A stretch of 64,000 nucleotides of DNA from an uncultured Eubacteriales bacterium. GTDB taxonomy: Bacteria; Bacillota; Clostridia; Oscillospirales; UBA644. Location of the stretch: the NCBI GenBank assembly GCA_959604355.1, contig CAUHAO010000002.1, positions 27,885 to 91,884 on the forward strand, in the 5' to 3' direction. The notes beneath the pieces were generated by a model. That model worked only from the letters and a program-made list of their open reading frames with translations, did not search any database and was not told where the DNA came from. A program made the position numbers and the translations under genes. Of the stretch, positions 33,327 through 57,925 are shown one piece after another. Position 1 is the first letter of the stretch; each line of letters opens with the position of its first letter.

Positions 33327-33358
33327 AAGGACCCGAATAGAGTTGCTCGGGTCCTTTT
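33327..33358. terminator. hairpin downstream of the ThuA array
   Basis: AAGGACCCGA/TCGGGTCCTT 10-bp stem. The T run is on the plus strand only, so terminator function for the minus-strand operon is uncertain. Confidence 0.3.
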
Positions 33359-33379: not shown

Positions 33380-34132
33380 TCAGTCTTTAGCAAATCCGAG
33401 TTCCTGGTCAAGTCTGTTGCTCCAGAATCCTTCATAGGGCTTCTGGATGACGACATCGGCGGGAGCTGCCCAATGAACGGCGTTGTCGATTATCTTCTGA
33501 ACATACTCGTTGTGGAACGAGGGGCAGTATTCATGACCGGGCTGGAAGTAGAATATCTTGCCGAGGCCGCGGTAGAAGCAGCATCCGCTGCGGAACATAT
33601 ATCCGGGCTCATACCAGCTTGCGAAGACTATTTCATCGGGATCCGGAATGTGGAAAGGCTCCGCATAAAGCTCTTCCTGGCTCAGCACGAAGTTGAGCGG
33701 GATGCCTTTTGCGATGGGATGAGCGGGGAGAATATTCCAGACAACTTCATTGAAAAGTCTGCCCCATGTCAGGTCGCCGGAGCAGCCGATGAGAGACTGG
33801 AATATCTTTGAATGATGCGACGAATGAAGCGCTATAAGACCCATTCCGTAGAAAAGAACGCGGTTTTTTATCTTCTCGACGAGTTCGTCTTTTACCTCGT
33901 CGTGATGCGCGTAGCCCCACCAAATGAGAACGTCGGTATTGTTGAGCAGCTCGTCGGGCAGACCCTGTTCGGGATCGTCAAGGCAAACTTTTGTTATCTC
34001 AAGCTCCGCGTCCTTTGAAAGGGCGTTCGCGATAGTGCCGTGAATACCTTCGGGATATATCTCTCGAACGGAGTCTTCCTCACGTTCCATGCGGTATTCG
34101 TTCCAGATGGTAACTCTGATTTTTTCAGCCAT
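33380..34132 (-). CDS. ThuA-domain protein (GATase1-like), paralogue 1
   Basis: 250 aa; 'IRVTIWNEY', 'DVLIWWGYAHHDEV', 'GLIALHSSHHSK', 'FYFQPGHE', 'NAVHWAAP'. Confidence 0.75.
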   Translation of the reverse strand: MAEKIRVTIWNEYRMEREEDSVREIYPEGIHGTIANALSKDAELEITKVCLDDPEQGLPDELLNNTDVLIWWGYAHHDEVKDELVEKIKNRVLFYGMGLIALHSSHHSKIFQSLIGCSGDLTWGRLFNEVVWNILPAHPIAKGIPLNFVLSQEELYAEPFHIPDPDEIVFASWYEPGYMFRSGCCFYRGLGKIFYFQPGHEYCPSFHNEYVQKIIDNAVHWAAPADVVIQKPYEGFWSNRLDQELGFAKD

Positions 34133-34147
34133 TTTGATGTCCCTCCC

Positions 34148-34891
34148 TTATATGCCGTAAAGCTCGGTCAAAGGCTTGCCCGCGAATCCTTCAAGAGGAA
34201 GCGCGACGCCCGTTTTTGTCGGTGCCGCCCAGTGAACCGCATTGGTGAGTATCTGCTGGACGTATTCGTTGTAGAACGACTTGCAGAACTCGTGACCGGG
34301 TTGGAAATAGAAAATTCTGCCGAGGCCGCGGTAGAAGCAGCAGCCACTGCGGAAGATATAGCCGTTTTTGAACCATCCGCCGAAAACCCATTCATCGGGT
34401 GCGGGAATATGGAACGGCTCCGAGAAGAGCTCCTCGCTTTCGAGCAGAAAATGCTGGGGAAGACCCTGAGCGATGGGGTGGGAGGGCTTGAGATTCCATA
34501 CTATCTCGGGACGTGCGGGACCGAATGTTATTTCGCACGCTGTGCCCATGAGCTTTATGAAAGGCTTGGAATAATGCGCGGAATGCATCGGTATAAAGCC
34601 CATGCCGTAGCTTTCGACGCGCTTTTGTATTTTATTTACAAGCTCGTCGTTTACTTCGTCATGGTGCTTGTGGCCCCACCACATAAGCACGTCGGTGTTG
34701 TTTAGCACCTCGTCCGGAAGACCTTGTTCGGGGTCGTCGAGACAGACGGTTTTGACTTCGAGCGTCGGGTCTTTGGAAAGAAAGTCCGCGATAGCACCGT
34801 GGATGCCCTTGGGGTATATTTCACGTACTTCTTCTACTTCGCGTTCGTGGCGAAATTCGTTCCATACGGTAACTCTGATTTTATCAGCCAT
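34148..34891 (-). CDS. ThuA-domain protein, paralogue 2
   Basis: 247 aa, colinear with paralogue 1 ('IRVTVWNEF', 'DVLMWWGHKHHDEV', 'FYFQPGHE'). Confidence 0.75.
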   Translation of the reverse strand: MADKIRVTVWNEFRHEREVEEVREIYPKGIHGAIADFLSKDPTLEVKTVCLDDPEQGLPDEVLNNTDVLMWWGHKHHDEVNDELVNKIQKRVESYGMGFIPMHSAHYSKPFIKLMGTACEITFGPARPEIVWNLKPSHPIAQGLPQHFLLESEELFSEPFHIPAPDEWVFGGWFKNGYIFRSGCCFYRGLGRIFYFQPGHEFCKSFYNEYVQQILTNAVHWAAPTKTGVALPLEGFAGKPLTELYGI

Positions 34892-34919
34892 AATGTCTCC
34901 TTTTTTGATATTGGATTTA

Positions 34920-35975
34920 TCAGTCGATATCGTCTTCGTCTTTTTTAGGTTCGATGCCCAGCTGCTTGGTCAAAGAGTGAATATGCGGTCCGTCGAGGTA
35001 TTTAGAGCCGAAGTTTATCGGCGCGACCCAGTGAACGGCGTTTCTGATAACTCTCTGAACATGTTCATTGTAGAACGAACGGCAGTATTCGTGGCCGGGC
35101 TGGAAATAGAATATTTTGCCCATGCCTCTGTACCACGCGCAGCCGCTGCGGAAAACATATCCGTTTTTATACCAGCTTATGAATACCTGCTCGTCGGGCT
35201 GCGGGATGCAGAAGGGCTCACCGTAAGTCTCTTCGGCTTCAATGTGGATGTATTCCGGAACGCCTTCCGCTACGGGATGGTTTTTCATGACCGTCCAGAT
35301 GATCTCGGGAACGTTTGCGCCCCAGCTAAGAGAGCAGTCTGTTCCCATTAGAGCTCTGAAAGGCTTGGACATATGAGCGGAATGCAGGGGAACGAAGCCC
35401 ATTCCGTCGAAAACTACACGTTTGCGTATTCTTTCCACAAGTTCATCGGGAACTTCGTCGTGGCTCATGTGTCCCCACCAGATGAGAACATCGGTGTTGT
35501 TGAGCACGTCATCCGGCAGACCGTTGTCGGGCTCGTCGAGCGTTGCCGTTCTTACTTCAAGCTCCTCGTCCTTGTCAAGAAATTCTTTGATAAGTCCGTG
35601 GATCCCCTTGGGATATATCGCTCTTACGCTTTCTTCTTCGACCTCGTGGCGGTATTCGTTCCATACAGTAACTCTGATTTTTTTTGCCATTGATGTATTC
35701 CTCCGTAAAATGATTTCATTTTTATCATATCCGACGACTTCTCCGTTTTCTGAAAAGACCTGTATCGCGGAATCCGCGTACGGGCCGAGAAGAGCCGAAA
35801 ATGCCTCTCTGTCTGTGATGACGAAACGGTATTTGCCCGGGGCTTCCGACAGCACGTCGTTGAGTGCGTCGAGGTTTCGTCCGAAATGCGAGGGAAATGG
35901 GATTTGGCTTGCAAGGATGTCATAAAATGACGCTTTGTCTGTGATTTTTTCTGTGTCTATTATTATATCTGTCAC
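34920..35975 (-). CDS. barstar-like RNase inhibitor reading in frame into ThuA-domain paralogue 3
   Basis: GTG 35975 overlaps the barnase stop (GTGA). Residues 1-~90 resemble barstar ('FGRNLDALNDVL' versus barstar 'YGENLDALWDCL'). No stop codon follows. The 5-codon junction RRNTS contains GGAGG 9 nt before ATG 35690, which starts 'MAKKIRVTVWNEY', the same N-terminus as the other two ThuA paralogues. Confidence 0.7.
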   Translation of the reverse strand: MTDIIIDTEKITDKASFYDILASQIPFPSHFGRNLDALNDVLSEAPGKYRFVITDREAFSALLGPYADSAIQVFSENGEVVGYDKNEIILRRNTSMAKKIRVTVWNEYRHEVEEESVRAIYPKGIHGLIKEFLDKDEELEVRTATLDEPDNGLPDDVLNNTDVLIWWGHMSHDEVPDELVERIRKRVVFDGMGFVPLHSAHMSKPFRALMGTDCSLSWGANVPEIIWTVMKNHPVAEGVPEYIHIEAEETYGEPFCIPQPDEQVFISWYKNGYVFRSGCAWYRGMGKIFYFQPGHEYCRSFYNEHVQRVIRNAVHWVAPINFGSKYLDGPHIHSLTKQLGIEPKKDEDDID

Positions 35976-36565
35976 GGCTTAACTTCCTTGAAAGATTCAT
36001 AATGGTCTTCGGTGTAATAAAACAGCCCGTCATTTGAGAAAAGCAGTCTTTTCGCGCCCCTGTTTCCGCCGTGATAGTCGATGTCACATTCGGTCCACGT
36101 TCTGCCTTCTGTTTCAGGAAGCAGCCCTTCGTAGTTTCCGAACCTGTCGCCGCCTATGCTTTTGCCTTTAAAGTATTTCCACAGGTCTCCGCCTTTCCAT
36201 CCGAGATCGTTTGCCTGTTTCTTTGTTATGTAGTTCGAAGGAAGTTTTCCGTAAGTGCGTATATACTCAACGACGTCTTCAAGCGACGTGTAGGTGCCGT
36301 CTTTACGGATTGTTTCGGTAGGCTCGTTTGTCGGAGCCTCTGTGGGCCTCTGCGTCGGGGCTTGTGTGGGTTCTTCGGTAGGGGGTGCATGCGTGGGGGG
36401 CTGCGTCGGTTCCGGAGTCGGAATGTACGCTGTTTCTTCCGTCGGGAAAAGTATCTCGATTATATCATTTATGAGATCTTCATCCAATGAGCATGCCGAG
36501 AGTGTCAGCGTGAGTGCCATTACTGTGGCAAGGATCACGGCGAGTATTTTACGGAATTTTACCAT
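35972..36565 (-). CDS. barnase-family guanyl-specific ribonuclease, lipoprotein-tethered through a Pro/Thr-rich linker
   Basis: C-terminal ~110 aa are colinear with B. amyloliquefaciens barnase. The equivalents of K27, E73, R83, R87 and H102 are present ('YITKKQA', 'RTWTECDIDY', 'NRGAKRLLFS', 'TEDHYESF'). N-terminal signal with lipobox 'LSAC', then a 'PTPEPTQPPTHAPPTEEPTQAPTQRPTEAPTNEPTE' linker. ATG 36565 is preceded by GAGAGGTGG; the tracked GTG 36574 is an alternative. Confidence 0.85.
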   Translation of the reverse strand: MVKFRKILAVILATVMALTLTLSACSLDEDLINDIIEILFPTEETAYIPTPEPTQPPTHAPPTEEPTQAPTQRPTEAPTNEPTETIRKDGTYTSLEDVVEYIRTYGKLPSNYITKKQANDLGWKGGDLWKYFKGKSIGGDRFGNYEGLLPETEGRTWTECDIDYHGGNRGAKRLLFSNDGLFYYTEDHYESFKEVKP

Positions 36566-36584
36566 GCATACCACCTCTCATCAT

Positions 36585-36613
36585 ATTATAACTCATTTTA
36601 TTCCGTTTGTCAA
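36585..36613 (-). promoter_or_regulatory. sigma-A-type promoter candidate for the barnase operon
   Basis: The minus strand reads TTGACA-17 nt-TATAAT (perfect consensus), immediately downstream of the preceding gene's terminator. Confidence 0.55.
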
Positions 36614-36615
36614 GC

Positions 36616-36668
36616 AAAAAAAGGTAAAAAATCGGCGGAAACATGCGTTTTTTACGCCGCTCCCGCCG
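36616..36668 (-). terminator. intrinsic terminator after the FKBP/trigger-factor-like lipoprotein gene
   Basis: The minus strand has a CGGCGG...CCGCCG stem with an inner GCGT/ACGC hairpin, followed by ATTTTTTACCTTTTTTT. Confidence 0.6.
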
Positions 36669-36678
36669 TGCTGTTTTT

Positions 36679-37821
36679 TTATTTTTCTATTGAATTGGAT
36701 GTTATGAAATCGAGAACTTTCTGGTTTTGCAAAGTGTAATGGATCTGTCCCTCGGTGAATTCGTCGATAAAATCCTGACGGCTCTCGAAATTGTAGTCGT
36801 CAAAGTCGCCGGATGCAAGGTATTCGTCTATTCCCGCGTAGTATTCTTCGTCTGTGAGCATGAGATTTTCCTTGTCGGTGATTGCTTTGCAGACGAGGTC
36901 GAATTTACAGTTATCCTCAGCGTTTTCTTTCGCGACGTCATAGAATTTTTCCTGTGAGCCGAAATAATCCTCTATGAACTCGGTAAATGAGTTTATACCG
37001 TAATACATCGACAGCATTGACTGGTAATTCGTATAGTACATTCTGTAATAGTCAACGAAATAGTCGTAGTAATAATTGTAAAGCTGTTCGGGCAGGGAAG
37101 AGAATTCCGAATCTTTGATTATCTGTGCCATGATGTGGCTCTGCTTATTCTGAACTCTGTCCTGATGGTAGCTTTCTTCTATCTTCTTCGTCACGTCGGA
37201 GATGTATTCGTCTACAGTCTTTGAATCCGATACTTCGGCAACTATTTCGTCCGTCAGCTCATCAAGCTCGAACTGCTCATTGATGCAATGTACGGTAACT
37301 TCGAAAACCACCTGTTTGCCGTTGAGCTCATCCACTCCGTAGTCTTCGGGGAAGGTGAGTTCAAGCACCACGGGCGTGTCTTCGGAAGGTATCGCGCCGA
37401 CAAGGCCGTCTTCAAACCCGTCAATATAGTTCGCGTGACCCACGGTTATTTTTATAGGCTCATTCGTCGAACCGCCTTCGAATTGCTCTCCGTCAATGTA
37501 GCCGACAAATTCTATGGTTATCAGGTCATCTTCCTCAACGGCTCTGTCGGTCACTTTTTTATAGATGTCCGCTTCAGCGAGGTCGGAACGCACCATTGCG
37601 ATTATATCGGTAGCTTCCGCCTTTGGGTACATTTCAATTTCTGCACCATTGTAGACCGCAAGGGTCTTTATATAGTCTTTGTAGTTGTATTCGATGTCGT
37701 AAAGCTCAACGTCTTCCGTGGGCGCCTCTGTCGGCTCTTGCGTGGGATCGGTCGTCGTGCCGCAGGCACAAAATACCGTGCAAAGCGCGAGAATCAGCGT
37801 TAGTAGTGATATTTTTTTCAT
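36679..37821 (-). CDS. lipoprotein with trigger-factor-like FKBP-type peptidyl-prolyl isomerase domain
   Basis: Lipobox 'VFCAC'. 'ITIEFVGYIDGEQFEGGS...ITVGHANYIDGFEDGLVG' is the trigger-factor PPIase signature; 380 aa. Confidence 0.65.
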   Translation of the reverse strand: MKKISLLTLILALCTVFCACGTTTDPTQEPTEAPTEDVELYDIEYNYKDYIKTLAVYNGAEIEMYPKAEATDIIAMVRSDLAEADIYKKVTDRAVEEDDLITIEFVGYIDGEQFEGGSTNEPIKITVGHANYIDGFEDGLVGAIPSEDTPVVLELTFPEDYGVDELNGKQVVFEVTVHCINEQFELDELTDEIVAEVSDSKTVDEYISDVTKKIEESYHQDRVQNKQSHIMAQIIKDSEFSSLPEQLYNYYYDYFVDYYRMYYTNYQSMLSMYYGINSFTEFIEDYFGSQEKFYDVAKENAEDNCKFDLVCKAITDKENLMLTDEEYYAGIDEYLASGDFDDYNFESRQDFIDEFTEGQIHYTLQNQKVLDFITSNSIEK

Positions 37822-41145: not shown

Positions 41146-41405
41146 AATTGAATACAGCCGTGCGGTTCCCGAAAAGGGATAAGAGGGAAGGTCGGTGTAA
41201 ATCCGTCGCAACAGCCATTACCGTGATCGGGGCAACCCGTAAGTCGGAATACTTGCCGCACAGCGCAGAAGTCCGGAACATTTTTGGGTAAAGAAGAGTG
41301 CAGCCGTTGAAACACCGCGGGAGAGGTGCGCCTTGCCCGTTTGATAAAGTGTTTTTAATGAGTTGCGCTTTTATCGTTTTTTACGGTAAGAGCGCTTGTT
41401 TTTTT
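41146..41405 (+). promoter_or_regulatory. cobalamin (B12) riboswitch with terminator expression platform
   Basis: Aptamer core motifs 'AGAGGGAAGGTCGGTGTAAATCC', 'ACCGTGATCGGGG' and B12-box-like 'AAGTCGGAATACTTGCC'. Closing helix GCCGTGCGG (41157-41165) pairs with CCGCACAGC (41256-41264). The terminator stem pairs 41365-41372 with 41388-41395 and is followed by TTGTTTTTTT, 18 nt before the first ATG. Confidence 0.7.
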
Positions 41406-41422: not shown

Positions 41423-41716
41423 ATGAAATATACAAAAGAAGATTGCGTCTTGCTTTTGCGCGGCGCGTATACGTCTCTCGGAAGATTTCCGCAGCGCTCG
41501 GATTTCGCCCCCGACGAGGTTGTGGCGATAAAATCTTTTTTCGGACCATGGCCCAGAGCTCTTGAAGCGGCGGGAATCAAAGAACCCAGGGCGGACAACC
41601 GGCTCGAACATAACCGCGAAAAACGCCGGCGCGCCGCACGCCGCAGGAGAGAAAACAGAATGTCGGGTTCGCAAGAACAAACTATAAAGAATATCATCAA
41701 GGAGGAAGAATTATGA
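41423..41716 (+). CDS. small highly basic protein (single helical repeat resembling homing-endonuclease-associated repeats)
   Basis: 97 aa, RBS GGGGGAG. 'GRFPQRSDFAPDEVVAIKSFFGPWPRALEAAGI' is followed by 'REKRRRAARRRRENR'. Its stop overlaps the next start (ATGA). Confidence 0.5.
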   Translation: MKYTKEDCVLLLRGAYTSLGRFPQRSDFAPDEVVAIKSFFGPWPRALEAAGIKEPRADNRLEHNREKRRRAARRRRENRMSGSQEQTIKNIIKEEEL

Positions 41717-42552
41717 AAACAAAATCGATCGTTGCAGTTATAATTTCTGTATTGATAGCGGCGTCACTTTGTGTCTCTGCCTCTGCGGAATCCATCGACG
41801 TTAATGTTACGGTTTCTTACGGCAAAGAAGTCCTCGCTCACGGCGTTACAGAGGTTTCCGACTATGATAACGACGGCGTACTTACACTCTCCGACGTACT
41901 CTTTGCGGCTCATGTGTCTCTCGCTTGCCACGAAGGTCAAGACGGCTACGCGTACGCAGAAACGGAGTACGGCAGAAGCCTCACGAAGCTCTGGGGTATC
42001 GAAAACGGAGGCTCTTACGGTTATTATATCAACAACTCTTCCGCTATGAGCTTGCTCGATCCCGTAAAAGATGGTGACAAGGTATGTGCCTTTATATATT
42101 CGGATACGACCGCGTGGAGCGATACATACTGCTGGTTCAGCGTTGATAAATGTTCTATTAGTAAAGAAAACAGCGTAACTATCACACTTTTTGCATCAAG
42201 TTACGATGAAAACTGGAACCCCGTTACCGCACCCGTAAAAGGTGCAAAAGTCTGTGTTGAAGGTAACTGCCTTTACACTACTGATGACGCAGGACAGTTT
42301 ACTGTCGCGCTTGACAAAGACGGAAAAATCGTTCTTCAGGACGGTCGGAAGCTTGCCCCTGTGACAAATGAAAGAGGTGTGATGACAATTACGGCGACAA
42401 GTGACAGCCTCAACCTTGTTGCTCCGGTTTGCGAAATAGAGATAGCGTCATCAAATCCCCAGACGTCCGATTATTCAGCTGCCGGGCTCGGCGTGCTTGC
42501 CGTTGCTCTTGCTTTCGGTGTCATATTTGTGATGAAGAAAAATGAAAAATAA
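41713..42552 (+). CDS. secreted DUF4430-type (transcobalamin beta-domain-like) protein with Ig-like domain and C-terminal anchor
   Basis: Signal peptide 'AASLCVSASA|ES'. 'GGSYGYYINNSSAMSLLDPVKDGDKVCAFIY' fits the DUF4430 pattern (W/Y-x-Y-x-V/I-N...GD-x-I/V-x-F-x-Y). 'VKGAKVCVEG..TTDDAGQFTV' looks like a beta-sandwich. The C-terminus 'NPQTSD' plus a hydrophobic helix plus 'KKNEK' looks like a sorting signal. Confidence 0.6.
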   Translation: MKTKSIVAVIISVLIAASLCVSASAESIDVNVTVSYGKEVLAHGVTEVSDYDNDGVLTLSDVLFAAHVSLACHEGQDGYAYAETEYGRSLTKLWGIENGGSYGYYINNSSAMSLLDPVKDGDKVCAFIYSDTTAWSDTYCWFSVDKCSISKENSVTITLFASSYDENWNPVTAPVKGAKVCVEGNCLYTTDDAGQFTVALDKDGKIVLQDGRKLAPVTNERGVMTITATSDSLNLVAPVCEIEIASSNPQTSDYSAAGLGVLAVALAFGVIFVMKKNEK

Positions 42553-44002
42553 ACTGATATTATTTTTACTGGTATCGATACTACTCCTTTCCGCCGCTGT
42601 TCCGACATCGGCAGCGGAAAGGGGTTTTTTGCTCAAATCTTCGGACGAGCTTCGGATAGGCGATGAGTTATATCTGCTCGCGCTCCTGAGCACTTCGCCT
42701 GATGAGGATTTTTCCGTTTATGCTCTGGAGCTTGAAAATTATCTTGCGTCAGATCCTGTCCTGTCAGCATCGACGGAGCAGAAATATGCACTTATGCGCA
42801 TTGCTCTCGGTACGGCGGATGAAGAGTATGTTTCGCATGTGCTTGACCGTACTGTCGGAAAACAGGGGATTATGAGTCTTGTTTTCGGACTTCATATAGT
42901 TAACAACACGGCACGCGATCCCGAAAAAATCATCACGGATATCCTTTCCGCTCGGCTTGAAGACGGCGGATGGGCTCTTTTCGGGGACTCGTCCGATGTC
43001 GATGTTACTGCGATGACATTACAGGCCCTTGCTCCTTATTATTCCGATAATGATGACGTCCGCGACTCGGTTGACTCGGCTCTTGCGTTCATTTCGCAAA
43101 AACAGCTCACAAACGGGGGGTTCTCTTCTTTCGGTGTGGATAATTGTGAAAGCTGTGCGCAGGTCCTCATAGCTCTTTCGTCACTCGGTATCGACTGCCG
43201 TACAGACGAAAGGTTCATAAAAAACGGCAGAACGGTGATCGACCGTCTCGAAGACTTTCGTCTTGATGACGGTTCTTTCAGTCATACCGAAAACGGCGCA
43301 TCCAACGCGGTTGCAACGTCACAGAGCGCACTCGCTTTTGCGGCGCTGGAAAATACCGGCAAACACAATGTTTTCCTCTTTAAACCCGCAGTACGGCAAG
43401 ATGGTGTGGCTTTTGTACCCGATACATCCAACACTGTTTCTTATAAACCCATTGCCGCCGCGTGTATTCTCGGAGCCGCAGTCTGTGTCTGCGCCGTGCT
43501 GCTGATACTTAAAAAGAAAAATATCAAAAATTTTATTTTTATCGCCTTTATTGCCGCCGCAGGCATCGCGTTTATCCTCTTTACCGATTTTTCGTTGCCG
43601 AAAAACTTTTACGGCGGCAACATCGAAGAGAATTATGTAGGCTACGTTACTGTCAGCGTCGGTTGTGAAACGCTTGTCGGAAAAAGTGATAGTGATAAAG
43701 ATTATATTCCGTCCGACGGCATCGTCCTCGCGCCGACTTCCGTCGGGATTTGTGAAAACGATACGGTTTATGACGTTCTTGTACGGGCGGCACGCGAAAA
43801 CGCTATGCAGACAGATATCTCGGCGGCAGGATATGTGCGCGGGTTGAATTATATTTATGAGTTCGATTTCGGCCCGCTTTCGGGGTGGATATACCGTGTC
43901 AACGGCGTCACGGCGTCCGTGGGCTGCGCGGAGTATAAACTCAGCAACGGCGACGCGGTGCAATGGCTTTATTCATGTGACATGGGCGAAGATCTTGACT
44001 GA
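42542..44002 (+). CDS. secreted alpha/alpha-toroid (prenyltransferase/terpene-cyclase-like repeat) protein, TM hairpin, C-terminal DUF4430 domain
   Basis: Signal peptide 'LLLSAAVPTSAAE'. Repeats 'LEDGGWALFGDSSDVDVTAMTLQAL', 'QLTNGGFSSFG..NCESCAQVLIAL', 'RLDDGSFSH'. Two TM helices at roughly aa 305-355. C-terminal 'LSGWIYRVNGVTASVGCAEYKLSNGDAVQWLYS'. Confidence 0.6.
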   Translation: MKNKLILFLLVSILLLSAAVPTSAAERGFLLKSSDELRIGDELYLLALLSTSPDEDFSVYALELENYLASDPVLSASTEQKYALMRIALGTADEEYVSHVLDRTVGKQGIMSLVFGLHIVNNTARDPEKIITDILSARLEDGGWALFGDSSDVDVTAMTLQALAPYYSDNDDVRDSVDSALAFISQKQLTNGGFSSFGVDNCESCAQVLIALSSLGIDCRTDERFIKNGRTVIDRLEDFRLDDGSFSHTENGASNAVATSQSALAFAALENTGKHNVFLFKPAVRQDGVAFVPDTSNTVSYKPIAAACILGAAVCVCAVLLILKKKNIKNFIFIAFIAAAGIAFILFTDFSLPKNFYGGNIEENYVGYVTVSVGCETLVGKSDSDKDYIPSDGIVLAPTSVGICENDTVYDVLVRAARENAMQTDISAAGYVRGLNYIYEFDFGPLSGWIYRVNGVTASVGCAEYKLSNGDAVQWLYSCDMGEDLD

Positions 44003-44013
44003 AAGGGGACGCG

Positions 44014-44892
44014 ATGAAGAGTATTTTCGACATGAATCCGATACCGGCGTTGATTTTCTTTTTTGAAGCGGCGCTTGCGGCGGTATTGACATTTGATCCG
44101 ATAATGTGCGCTTTGTCGCTTGTCGGTGCCGTCATTCTCGCGGCGTCTTTGCGTGTGCGTGTAGGGTGGCGCAAAGGGGTGGGAATATTTGCGCTTTTTG
44201 CGGTAATGGCGCTCATCAACCCCCTCGTATATCATAACGGCGTGACGGTCTTGTTTGTCTTCAACAATAATCCCGTGACGCTTGAGGCGGTGCTTTTCGG
44301 CGTTTTCTCTTCCTCGATGATAGTTTCCGTCATACTTTGGTTTATATCATTTTCCGCAGTAATGACGTCTGAGAAACTGCTTTACGTTTTTGGCTGCATA
44401 AGCCCGAAGATAGCGCTGATTTTCTCTATGGTACTGCGTTATATTCCGCTTTTTTCCGCGCAGATGAAGAAGATATCTCAGTCGCAAAAAGCTTTGGGTC
44501 TTTACAAAGAGGACAATATCATCGATACGCTGCGCGGTAAAATGCGCATATTTTCCGTTATGGTCACATGGACTCTCGAAAACGGTATAATTACCGCCGA
44601 CAGCATGTCCGCCCGCGGCTACGGATGCGGCAGACGCACGTATTTTCGGCGTTTTTCTTTCTGCAGTTCGGATGCCGTATTTCTTGCGGTAACGGCACTT
44701 CTCACATCCGCGTCCTTATACGGCACGCTTTCGGGAGCGCTTGCGTTCGGGTTTTATCCGTCGATGTCTCCGTTGCCGTCGTCCGTCGCCGCAAATGTTG
44801 CCCATGCGGCGTACGCGTTGCTTGTTCTCATGCCGTCCGTAATTCAATTCAAGGAGTCTCTGAAATGGAAATACTTGCTTGCAAAGGCTTGA
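44014..44892 (+). CDS. ECF transporter transmembrane (T) component, CbiQ family
   Basis: 292 aa, polytopic. 'LRYIPLFSAQMKKISQSQKALG' corresponds to the EcfT coupling-helix region. Confidence 0.7.
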   Translation: MKSIFDMNPIPALIFFFEAALAAVLTFDPIMCALSLVGAVILAASLRVRVGWRKGVGIFALFAVMALINPLVYHNGVTVLFVFNNNPVTLEAVLFGVFSSSMIVSVILWFISFSAVMTSEKLLYVFGCISPKIALIFSMVLRYIPLFSAQMKKISQSQKALGLYKEDNIIDTLRGKMRIFSVMVTWTLENGIITADSMSARGYGCGRRTYFRRFSFCSSDAVFLAVTALLTSASLYGTLSGALAFGFYPSMSPLPSSVAANVAHAAYALLVLMPSVIQFKESLKWKYLLAKA

Positions 44893-57727: not shown

Positions 57728-57816
57728 GCCGGAGTGGCGGAATTGGCAGACGCCCGGGACTTAAAATCCCGTGAAACGAGAGTTTCGTGCCGGTTCGATC
57801 CCGGTCTCCGGCACCA
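57728..57816 (+). tRNA. tRNA-Leu (anticodon UAA), CCA encoded
   Basis: Hand-folded cloverleaf. Acceptor GCCGGAG/CTCCGGC, anticodon loop CTTAAAA, long variable arm, T arm GCCGG-TTCGATC-CCGGT. Confidence 0.85.

Positions 57817-57848: not shown

Positions 57849-57925
<77 letters not shown>

Follow-up and report, generated by a model that had tools for sequence, protein, structure and literature searches.

A gene pair encoding a barnase-family ribonuclease (RNase) and its inhibitor barstar was analysed in a 64,000-nucleotide stretch of the genome of an uncultured Eubacteriales bacterium (assembly GCA_959604355.1, contig CAUHAO010000002.1, positions 27,885 to 91,884), referred to as the window. 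As judged from its sequence, the pair is a lipoprotein-tethered form of the known barnase-barstar system, a form which is common in databases and apparently uncharacterised in the literature. Its role is rather likely that of a tethered scavenger, i.e., a cell-retained, lipid-anchored RNase acting on extracellular RNA and guarded by barstar. All sequence features listed in an earlier sequence-only reading, which was made without database searches, were found again where it had placed them. Two points go beyond that reading: the probable capture of a thuA promoter by the RNase-barstar cassette and the fusion of barstar to a ThuA protein.

The open reading frame (ORF) of the RNase is listed by the ORF-finding program from a GTG codon at position 36574. 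The ATG at 36565 is the likely start, because it is better spaced relative to the ribosome-binding site (RBS) and because the resulting form of 197 amino acids is the one deposited in a public protein collection that draws on NCBI among other sources; NCBI gives an incomplete member of its cluster the name 'ribonuclease domain-containing protein'. A search with the Pfam profile PF00545 for N1/T1 microbial ribonucleases gave 67.3 bits (cut-off 24), with residues 103-198 of the GTG-start ORF aligned to profile positions 6-97 of 98. In a sequence search of the PDB, barnase was retrieved with E = 4e-29, and barnase and binase matched across the whole RNase domain at about 1e-29. The AlphaFold model of this domain has a predicted local distance difference test (pLDDT) score of at least 95. 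When the domain was submitted to Foldseek, the best match was barnase (1bgs_A; template modelling (TM) score 0.94, root-mean-square deviation (rmsd) 1.0 Å, 48% identity), and all top matches were either barnase or binase (TM 0.92-0.96, rmsd 0.8-1.5 Å).

The proposal that the domain is colinear with barnase and keeps its catalytic and phosphate-binding residues was borne out by the alignment. Barnase residues K27, D54, E73, R83, R87 and H102 are all retained, and K27, E73, R83, R87 and H102 are invariant across 19 sequences (18 clostridial homologues and barnase). Of these five, E73 is the general base and H102 the general acid of catalysis, and K27, R83 and R87 bind phosphate. Within the guanine-recognition loop (S57-N58-R59-E60 of barnase), N58 and E60 are invariant in the same alignment, while R59 is replaced by Tyr in the window RNase and the position is occupied by Y, R or K in the family. 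In addition, Ala74 of barnase is exchanged for Cys (ECD motif), a residue which is nearly invariant in the clostridial clade. Given the profile score, the PDB matches, the retained catalytic residues and the predicted alpha+beta fold, membership in the barnase family is secure. By these features the window protein is a barnase-family RNase with an apparently intact active site, and it would be expected to have RNase activity. Compared with a relative of 97% identity, the RNase shows six synonymous and six non-synonymous differences, which are too few to interpret. Neither the RNase nor the barstar::ThuA fusion described below is covered by a specific family in NCBIfam; a match of the RNase linker to an S-layer glycoprotein in this collection was discarded as low-complexity and meaningless.

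The N-terminus of the RNase precursor resembles a lipoprotein signal peptide, as the sequence-only reading had noted. The n-region MVKFRK is followed by a hydrophobic stretch of 16 residues and the lipobox L-S-A-C25, and residues 2-24 were modelled as a single helix by AlphaFold. Every term of the PROSITE rule PS51257 is satisfied by this signal, i.e., a positive n-region (K/R within the first seven residues), a hydrophobic h-region, and a lipobox [LVI][ASTVI][GAS]C with the Cys at position 15-35. By contrast, the signal of barnase itself fails the rule. The RNase would therefore be lipid-anchored at Cys25. Apart from the Cys, which homologues retain where the hydrophobic stretch ends, their signals and linkers cannot be aligned with one another, and this retention argues that lipidation is selected.

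Cys25 is followed by a linker that contains 40% Pro+Thr and 21% Asp+Glu and has a net charge of -11. Its Pro/Thr-rich part comprises about 45 residues, in agreement with the sequence-only reading. The linker is predicted to be disordered (pLDDT 53-65 at residues 41-80) and has a weak, sub-threshold match to the Pfam family PT. A short acidic amphipathic helix (DLINDIIEILF, residues 29-39; 36448-36480, minus strand) was predicted by AlphaFold right after Cys25. It was considered as a family-wide pro-region or internal inhibitor and rejected, as no more than about 12 of 121 lipobox homologues have a comparable segment. Fully extended, the 62-residue linker would span at most about 20 nm, which would not exceed the thickness of a Gram-positive wall. 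Given this reach, the RNase is more likely to reside within or under the wall than on its outside. 'Tethered in the wall zone' is therefore a safer description than 'displayed' on the surface, the wording of the sequence-only reading.

Relatives of the RNase were found in at least 583 species in a scan of species-representative genomes, and locus counts refer to the best 80 of them (59-70% identity). These are almost all from Lachnospiraceae, Oscillospiraceae, Ruminococcus and other gut or rumen Clostridia, and they include the cultured isolates Schaedlerella arabinosiphila DSM 106076, Butyrivibrio sp. NC3005 and Holdemania sp. Marseille-P2844. A second set consisted of the best 150 representatives of 50%-identity clusters, and the 149 genes flanking the 80 loci served as controls. 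Among the 80 genomic relatives, 54 passed PS51257, and among the 150 cluster representatives, 66 did so, compared with eight of the 149 control ORFs (5%). With a looser lipobox pattern the numbers rose to 58 and 70, respectively. The linkers of the lipobox homologues are 15-114 residues long (median 67.5) and contain 25% Asp+Glu; their median net charge is -12.5. What characterises the family is a long, acidic tether of low complexity, Pro/Thr richness being a local variation. The unusualness implied by the sequence-only reading is not reflected in these counts: the predicted architecture of lipobox, acidic linker and C-terminal barnase is that of the majority of the closest relatives and no rarity. 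Literature searches on barnase or guanyl-specific ribonuclease together with lipoprotein or lipobox yielded no description of lipobox barnases. Plasmid homologues amounted to 55 records only in the collection searched, none with the window architecture covering the query.

The 26 close relatives without a rule-conforming lipobox indicate that anchoring is not obligatory in the family, and in plasmid homologues of Clostridium estertheticum the signal ends in TTAKA-D, which resembles a signal peptidase I site. Both observations fit a conventional barnase that is secreted in soluble form, either after cleavage by signal peptidase I near Ala24 or through proteolytic release, and in which the linker would be a pro-region or spacer. 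Barnase, binase and balifase are secreted by means of a signal peptide and a propeptide (PMC8294519; PMC5021464), and a disordered linker rich in Pro, Thr and acidic residues, as suggested by the pLDDT values, would be accessible to proteases. For the window protein, however, such an enzyme is unlikely. Its lipobox is perfect by the rule, Leu at position -3 is poor for signal peptidase I, and the Cys is retained at the end of divergent signals in about two thirds of the close relatives as opposed to 5% of the control ORFs.

Two further groups of homologues were encountered in these searches. Most high-scoring homologues in the protein set (P0002-P0120) are secreted proteins of 270-300 amino acids with two tandem barnase domains. 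The catalytic His is present in only one of the two domains in 83 of 87 parsable cases, the other domain having R, N, G, A, S or K; this pattern suggests a combination of one active and one pseudo-RNase domain. Close homologues of the barnase-barstar pair (64-67% identity) were also found in metagenome-assembled genomes (MAGs) labelled 'Campylobacter sp.' (L014, L015, L018, L020, L029, L034, L051, L080) and 'Prevotella sp.' (L038). The 'Campylobacter' proteins have a hydrophobic N-terminus without lipobox, and their neighbours include Ysc84-domain genes. The presence of the pair in MAGs labelled as Gram-negative could be due to horizontal transfer or mis-binning.

The inhibitor gene lies immediately downstream of the RNase gene, its GTG start codon overlapping the TGA stop codon of the latter (GTGA). 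The encoded domain scored 62.2 bits with PF01337 (cut-off 23.4) and matched barstar in the PDB with E = 6e-4; its motif NLDALND aligns with NLDALWD of barstar, and D35, D39 and E76 are kept. This barstar adjoins the RNase and is translationally coupled to it, but it is not a free-standing protein of about 90 residues. Its frame has no stop codon of its own and continues through the five codons RRNTS into the start Met of ThuA1, giving a fusion of 351 amino acids which is named 'ThuA domain-containing protein' by NCBI. Since near-identical 351-residue fusions are present in independent assemblies, the fusion is not a sequencing error. ThuA1 could probably be made alone as well, from the ATG at 35690. 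The other 119 best-matching ThuA homologues all lack barstar. The fusion is followed by two further ThuA genes. The three tandem paralogues (33380-35690, minus strand) encode about 250 amino acids each and share 66-69% DNA identity with one another, and the triplet is conserved in a related genome.

Of the 80 loci, 74 encode barstar directly downstream of barnase; among the six that do not, three are truncated by contig ends. In ten of the 74 other loci that contain barstar it is fused in frame to a downstream enzyme, and at least five partner families besides ThuA are represented (Table 1). No description of barstar fusions was retrieved by a literature search that included barstar with queuosine.

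The locus was compared with that of a relative that lacks both barnase and barstar (L005; GCA_902473425.1 and similar metagenome contigs). In this relative a metallophosphatase gene, a gene for a peptidyl-prolyl isomerase (PPIase) lipoprotein and three thuA genes are arranged in the order found in the window, and its ThuA1 is 75% identical to that of the window. The spacer between the PPIase gene and thuA1 (within L005 5700-5990) contains a terminator, a TTGACA-17-TATAAT promoter, a leader of about 125 nt and the RBS TACGGAGGAAT. The promoter core can be aligned with that of the window (CTTGACAAA-GGAA-AAAAT...TATAATA), and TACGGAGGAAT is common to the window junction and the thuA1 RBS region of L005. 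Collinearity in BLASTN (77% identity over 2.3 kb) extends from window position 35707 to the end of thuA3. It starts 3 nt before the thuA1 RBS, exactly at the last barstar codon. The 876-bp cassette of RBS, barnase and stop-less barstar (about 35708-36583) lies where the relative has its thuA leader. By TBLASTN, the relative showed no remnant of barnase or barstar. An Rfam scan of L005, including the leader, and of the whole window revealed no riboswitch or other family at the RNase locus.

Because the barnase-less relative has an alignable promoter driving thuA at the same place, the RNase cassette sits behind a resident operon promoter. The sequence-only reading had assigned the RNase gene 'its own' promoter; the comparison indicates that it is probably the resident promoter of the thuA operon. 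Insertion of the cassette in place of the thuA leader is the simplest reading, with loss in the relative as the alternative, two lineages having been compared. On the same simplest reading, the RRNTS linker of the fusion would be encoded by the old RBS of thuA1. The RNase gene would be co-transcribed with barstar::thuA1-thuA2-thuA3. A second ThuA relative (P0125) was considered for distinguishing insertion from deletion; it is not syntenic and was uninformative.

The position of the cassette exactly between a resident promoter and the RBS of thuA1, the fusion of barstar to a resident gene both here and in the ten loci mentioned, and a neighbourhood that is not conserved are what would be expected of a selfish, addiction-type cassette. 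Such a pair would insert between promoters and first operon genes and persist since loss of barstar is lethal, with little benefit to the host. This explanation is nevertheless very unlikely, as an exported lipid-anchored toxin leaves the cytoplasm and makes a poor addiction module. Moreover, no flanking repeats, integrase or transposase were found at the cassette, its G+C content is indistinguishable from that of the flanks, no close DNA relative was found elsewhere (the next homologue being at most 70% identical), and the phage collection contained no homologue of the RNase. A more far-reaching scenario is doubtful as a whole. It holds that lipid-anchored barnases on acidic disordered tethers are a dominant, unstudied class of cell-bound RNases in hundreds of species of gut and rumen Clostridia, and that the cassettes spread between a resident promoter and the RBS of the first gene, capturing the promoter and welding barstar to ThuA, QueA, NUDIX, methyltransferase or DUF1349 proteins so that loss of the inhibitor would mean loss of the resident gene.

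Table 1. Features of the RNase-barstar locus and its surroundings (window positions), and barstar fusions at related loci.
Feature	Position or locus	Strand	Basis or remarks
Barnase-family RNase precursor, 197 amino acids + stop	35972..36565	-	PF00545, PDB barnase match
RBS GAGAGGTGG of RNase gene	36571..36579	-	read from sequence; 5 nt before ATG 36565
Lipoprotein signal peptide (residues 1-24) + Cys25, lipobox L-S-A-C	36491..36565	-	PROSITE PS51257
Acidic Pro/Thr-rich linker, residues 26-87 (62 amino acids), predicted	36305..36490	-	composition, pLDDT
Catalytic barnase domain, residues 88-197 (110 residues)	35975..36304	-	pLDDT, Foldseek, family alignment
Barstar domain, residues 1-90 of the 351-residue ORF (34920-35975), GTG start	35706..35975	-	PF01337
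Five-codon junction RRNTS	35691..35705	-	corresponds to thuA1 RBS (GGAGG, 35700-35704) + spacer in relative L005
ThuA1 part of barstar::ThuA fusion	34920..35690	-	PF06283, 117 bits, fusion residues 101-317
ThuA2	34148..34891	-	PF06283, 100 bits; syntenic in L003-L006; 28-nt gap to thuA1
ThuA3, last gene of the operon	33380..34132	-	PF06283, 91 bits; 15-nt gap to thuA2
Hairpin GGACCCGA...TCGGGTCC after thuA3	33329-33354	-	read from sequence; no clear T-run
Sigma-70-type promoter TTGACA-17-TATAAT	36585..36613	-	12/12 match
Intrinsic terminator hairpin of the upstream PPIase gene	36633..36668	-	U-run 36616-36632
Upstream lipoprotein, FKBP/trigger-factor-type PPIase, outside the cassette	36679..37821	-	PF00254, PF05698; lipobox scan
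Eight perfect promoters of the window	12265, 29561, 31210, 36585, 49627, 54707, 57660, 59181		
Barstar-QueA fusions (n=5)	L007, L024, L039, L041, L045		barstar frame runs into the QueA start Met
Barstar-NUDIX fusions (n=2)	L043, L047		
Barstar-DUF1349 fusion (n=1)	L048		
Barstar-methyltransferase fusion (n=1)	L076		
Barstar-glyoxalase-like fusion (n=1)	L038		

The promoter itself was located on the minus strand directly after the terminator of the upstream gene, in agreement with the sequence-only reading. The fold of the terminator region (36610-36690) has a free energy of -26 kcal/mol and a z score of -3.4, and none of 200 shuffled sequences was as stable. Transcripts starting at the promoter would give the RNase gene a very short 5' untranslated region of about 13 nt. 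A perfect TTGACA-N17-TATAAT occurs eight times in the window, compared with 0.02 occurrences expected from shuffled sequences; it is the usual form of the promoter in this organism and not special to the RNase gene. Several of the eight promoters have TTGACAAA and an extended A-rich spacer in common.

With these elements the following sequence of events can be proposed. As the first part of a barnase-barstar::thuA1-thuA2-thuA3 operon, the cassette would be transcribed and give rise to an RNase with a type II (lipoprotein) signal, whose Cys25 would be lipidated after export and whose signal would be cut off by signal peptidase II. The 110-residue domain would then be held at the outer face of the cytoplasmic membrane by its 62-residue acidic, disordered tether. 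There it may cut extracellular RNA or RNA in the wall zone as a guanyl-preferring RNase, and the products would remain close to the producer, allowing private scavenging of nucleotides and phosphate. Barstar, coupled via the GTGA overlap, would stay in the cytoplasm and neutralise RNase molecules that fold before export. In Bacillus, phosphate starvation induces the homologues binase and balifase (PMC5021464). On balance, and by analogy, a scavenging role appears to be the best reading of the data.

Several points weigh against a tethered scavenger. The 149 flanking genes fall into 143 Pfam families, none of which is enriched; mobile-element genes did not stand out, nor did genes for nucleotidases, phosphatases, or nucleoside or phosphate uptake. 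Genomic context therefore gives scavenging no positive support; the neighbourhood survey favours neither a scavenging nor a toxin function. The promoter looks constitutive, with no evident starvation control. The lipoprotein assignment derives from a pattern rule and from conservation. With a reach of at most 20 nm when extended, and far less as a coil, the linker may not pass the wall, which would restrict access to large RNAs. Gram-positive lipoproteins are often shed, so the RNase may become soluble. Finally, the literature searches brought up no experiment on any lipobox barnase.

Barnase domains and barstar immunity proteins are established modules of polymorphic toxin systems (PMC3482391), and the sequence-only reading had entertained contact-dependent antagonism as a function of the window RNase. 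The tethered or released enzyme would then kill neighbours devoid of barstar, and barstar would confer immunity. In the example from plasmid pMC319 of B. thuringiensis MC28 (AFU17719.1), a protein of 956 amino acids with choline-binding repeats, SH3, PT-TG and a C-terminal barnase domain is followed by a barstar gene; the window cassette has the same order of toxin and immunity gene. Like many mobile conflict genes, it occurs in many unrelated contexts and is missing from a syntenic relative. Tox-Barnase toxins (Zhang et al. 2012, PMC3482391) and the window RNase further have in common that an N-terminal module holds them at the envelope, or is predicted to do so. These modules differ, however. 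AFU17719.1 has wall-binding repeats, SH3 and PT-TG, whereas the window RNase has only a lipobox and a low-complexity linker: apart from PF00545 and the sub-threshold PT match, Pfam revealed no domain, and in particular no receptor-binding, translocation, PT-TG, RHS, LXG or WXG domain, nor any other trafficking, pre-toxin or repeat domain. Genes of a type VII or another secretion system were neither found at the window locus nor enriched among the 149 neighbours, and the locus contains no array of alternative toxin tips and no orphan immunity genes. An enzyme anchored under the wall of its producer would also have no evident route into the cytoplasm of a target cell. An antagonistic toxin is improbable on these grounds. 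The database record of AFU17719.1 (L091, 394-3264) reads 'S-layer homology domain ribonuclease'; no SLH domain was found in it by Pfam.

The tethered RNase and its inhibitor are most closely comparable to the systems of Bacillus. With barnase of B. amyloliquefaciens, binase of B. pumilus and balifase of B. licheniformis, the window domain shares the fold and the catalytic residues K27, E73, R83, R87 and H102, and the inhibitor belongs to the same family as Bacillus barstar, including D35, D39 and E76. Balifase and its inhibitor are encoded in one operon (PMC5021464), as in the window. The Bacillus enzymes have a type I signal and a short propeptide, whereas the window RNase has a type II signal with lipobox and, unlike them, a 62-residue acidic Pro/Thr linker in front of the domain, in addition to the two replacements R59 to Tyr and Ala74 to Cys. 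Bacillus barstar, unlike that of the window, is not fused to ThuA. Finally, the host is an anaerobic gut member of the Eubacteriales known from a MAG and not a Bacillus.

Nucleases anchored to the envelope are known from other bacteria: YhcR is attached to the wall of B. subtilis, Nuc2 to the membrane of S. aureus, and MnuA is a lipoprotein of mycoplasmas. In these cases, too, a secreted nuclease is kept at the surface of its producer and is thought to serve nucleotide scavenging, the same logic as that proposed for the window RNase. Their folds are unrelated, and they are metal-dependent and sugar-non-specific, as opposed to a metal-independent, presumably guanyl-preferring RNase. Nor are YhcR, Nuc2 and MnuA known to need a dedicated cytoplasmic inhibitor.

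Upstream of the cassette, the PPIase carries a lipobox (FCAC-GTTTDPTQEPTEAPTED) and a short Pro/Thr linker of its own after the Cys. It scored 146 bits with TIGR00115, below the cut-off of 180 bits. The protein resembles a trigger-factor-like foldase that is lipid-anchored outside the cytoplasm, and it could help to fold exported proteins such as the RNase. Elsewhere in the window, a cobalamin riboswitch (41146-41274, plus strand; 41.8 bits) is located upstream of ORFs at 41713-44892, and two tRNA genes are present at 57728-57813 and 57849-57922 (both plus strand).

Barnase and barstar are among the best-studied protein pairs, and what is known of them comes mostly from a few soluble Bacillus enzymes. 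The findings reported here extend this known system and do not overturn its current understanding. The recurrent fusion of barstar to unrelated enzymes poses a small, testable puzzle on how toxin-inhibitor cassettes settle into operons. As the survey indicates, barnase in anaerobic Clostridia of gut and rumen usually takes the form of a lipoprotein tethered to the membrane through a long acidic linker. If tethering is confirmed, these proteins would provide surface display with natural designs of anchor, linker and barnase that are competent for export. It would also point to cell-bound RNA degradation as a trait common in gut Firmicutes, with a bearing on how extracellular RNA and RNA from diet and host are turned over in the gut.

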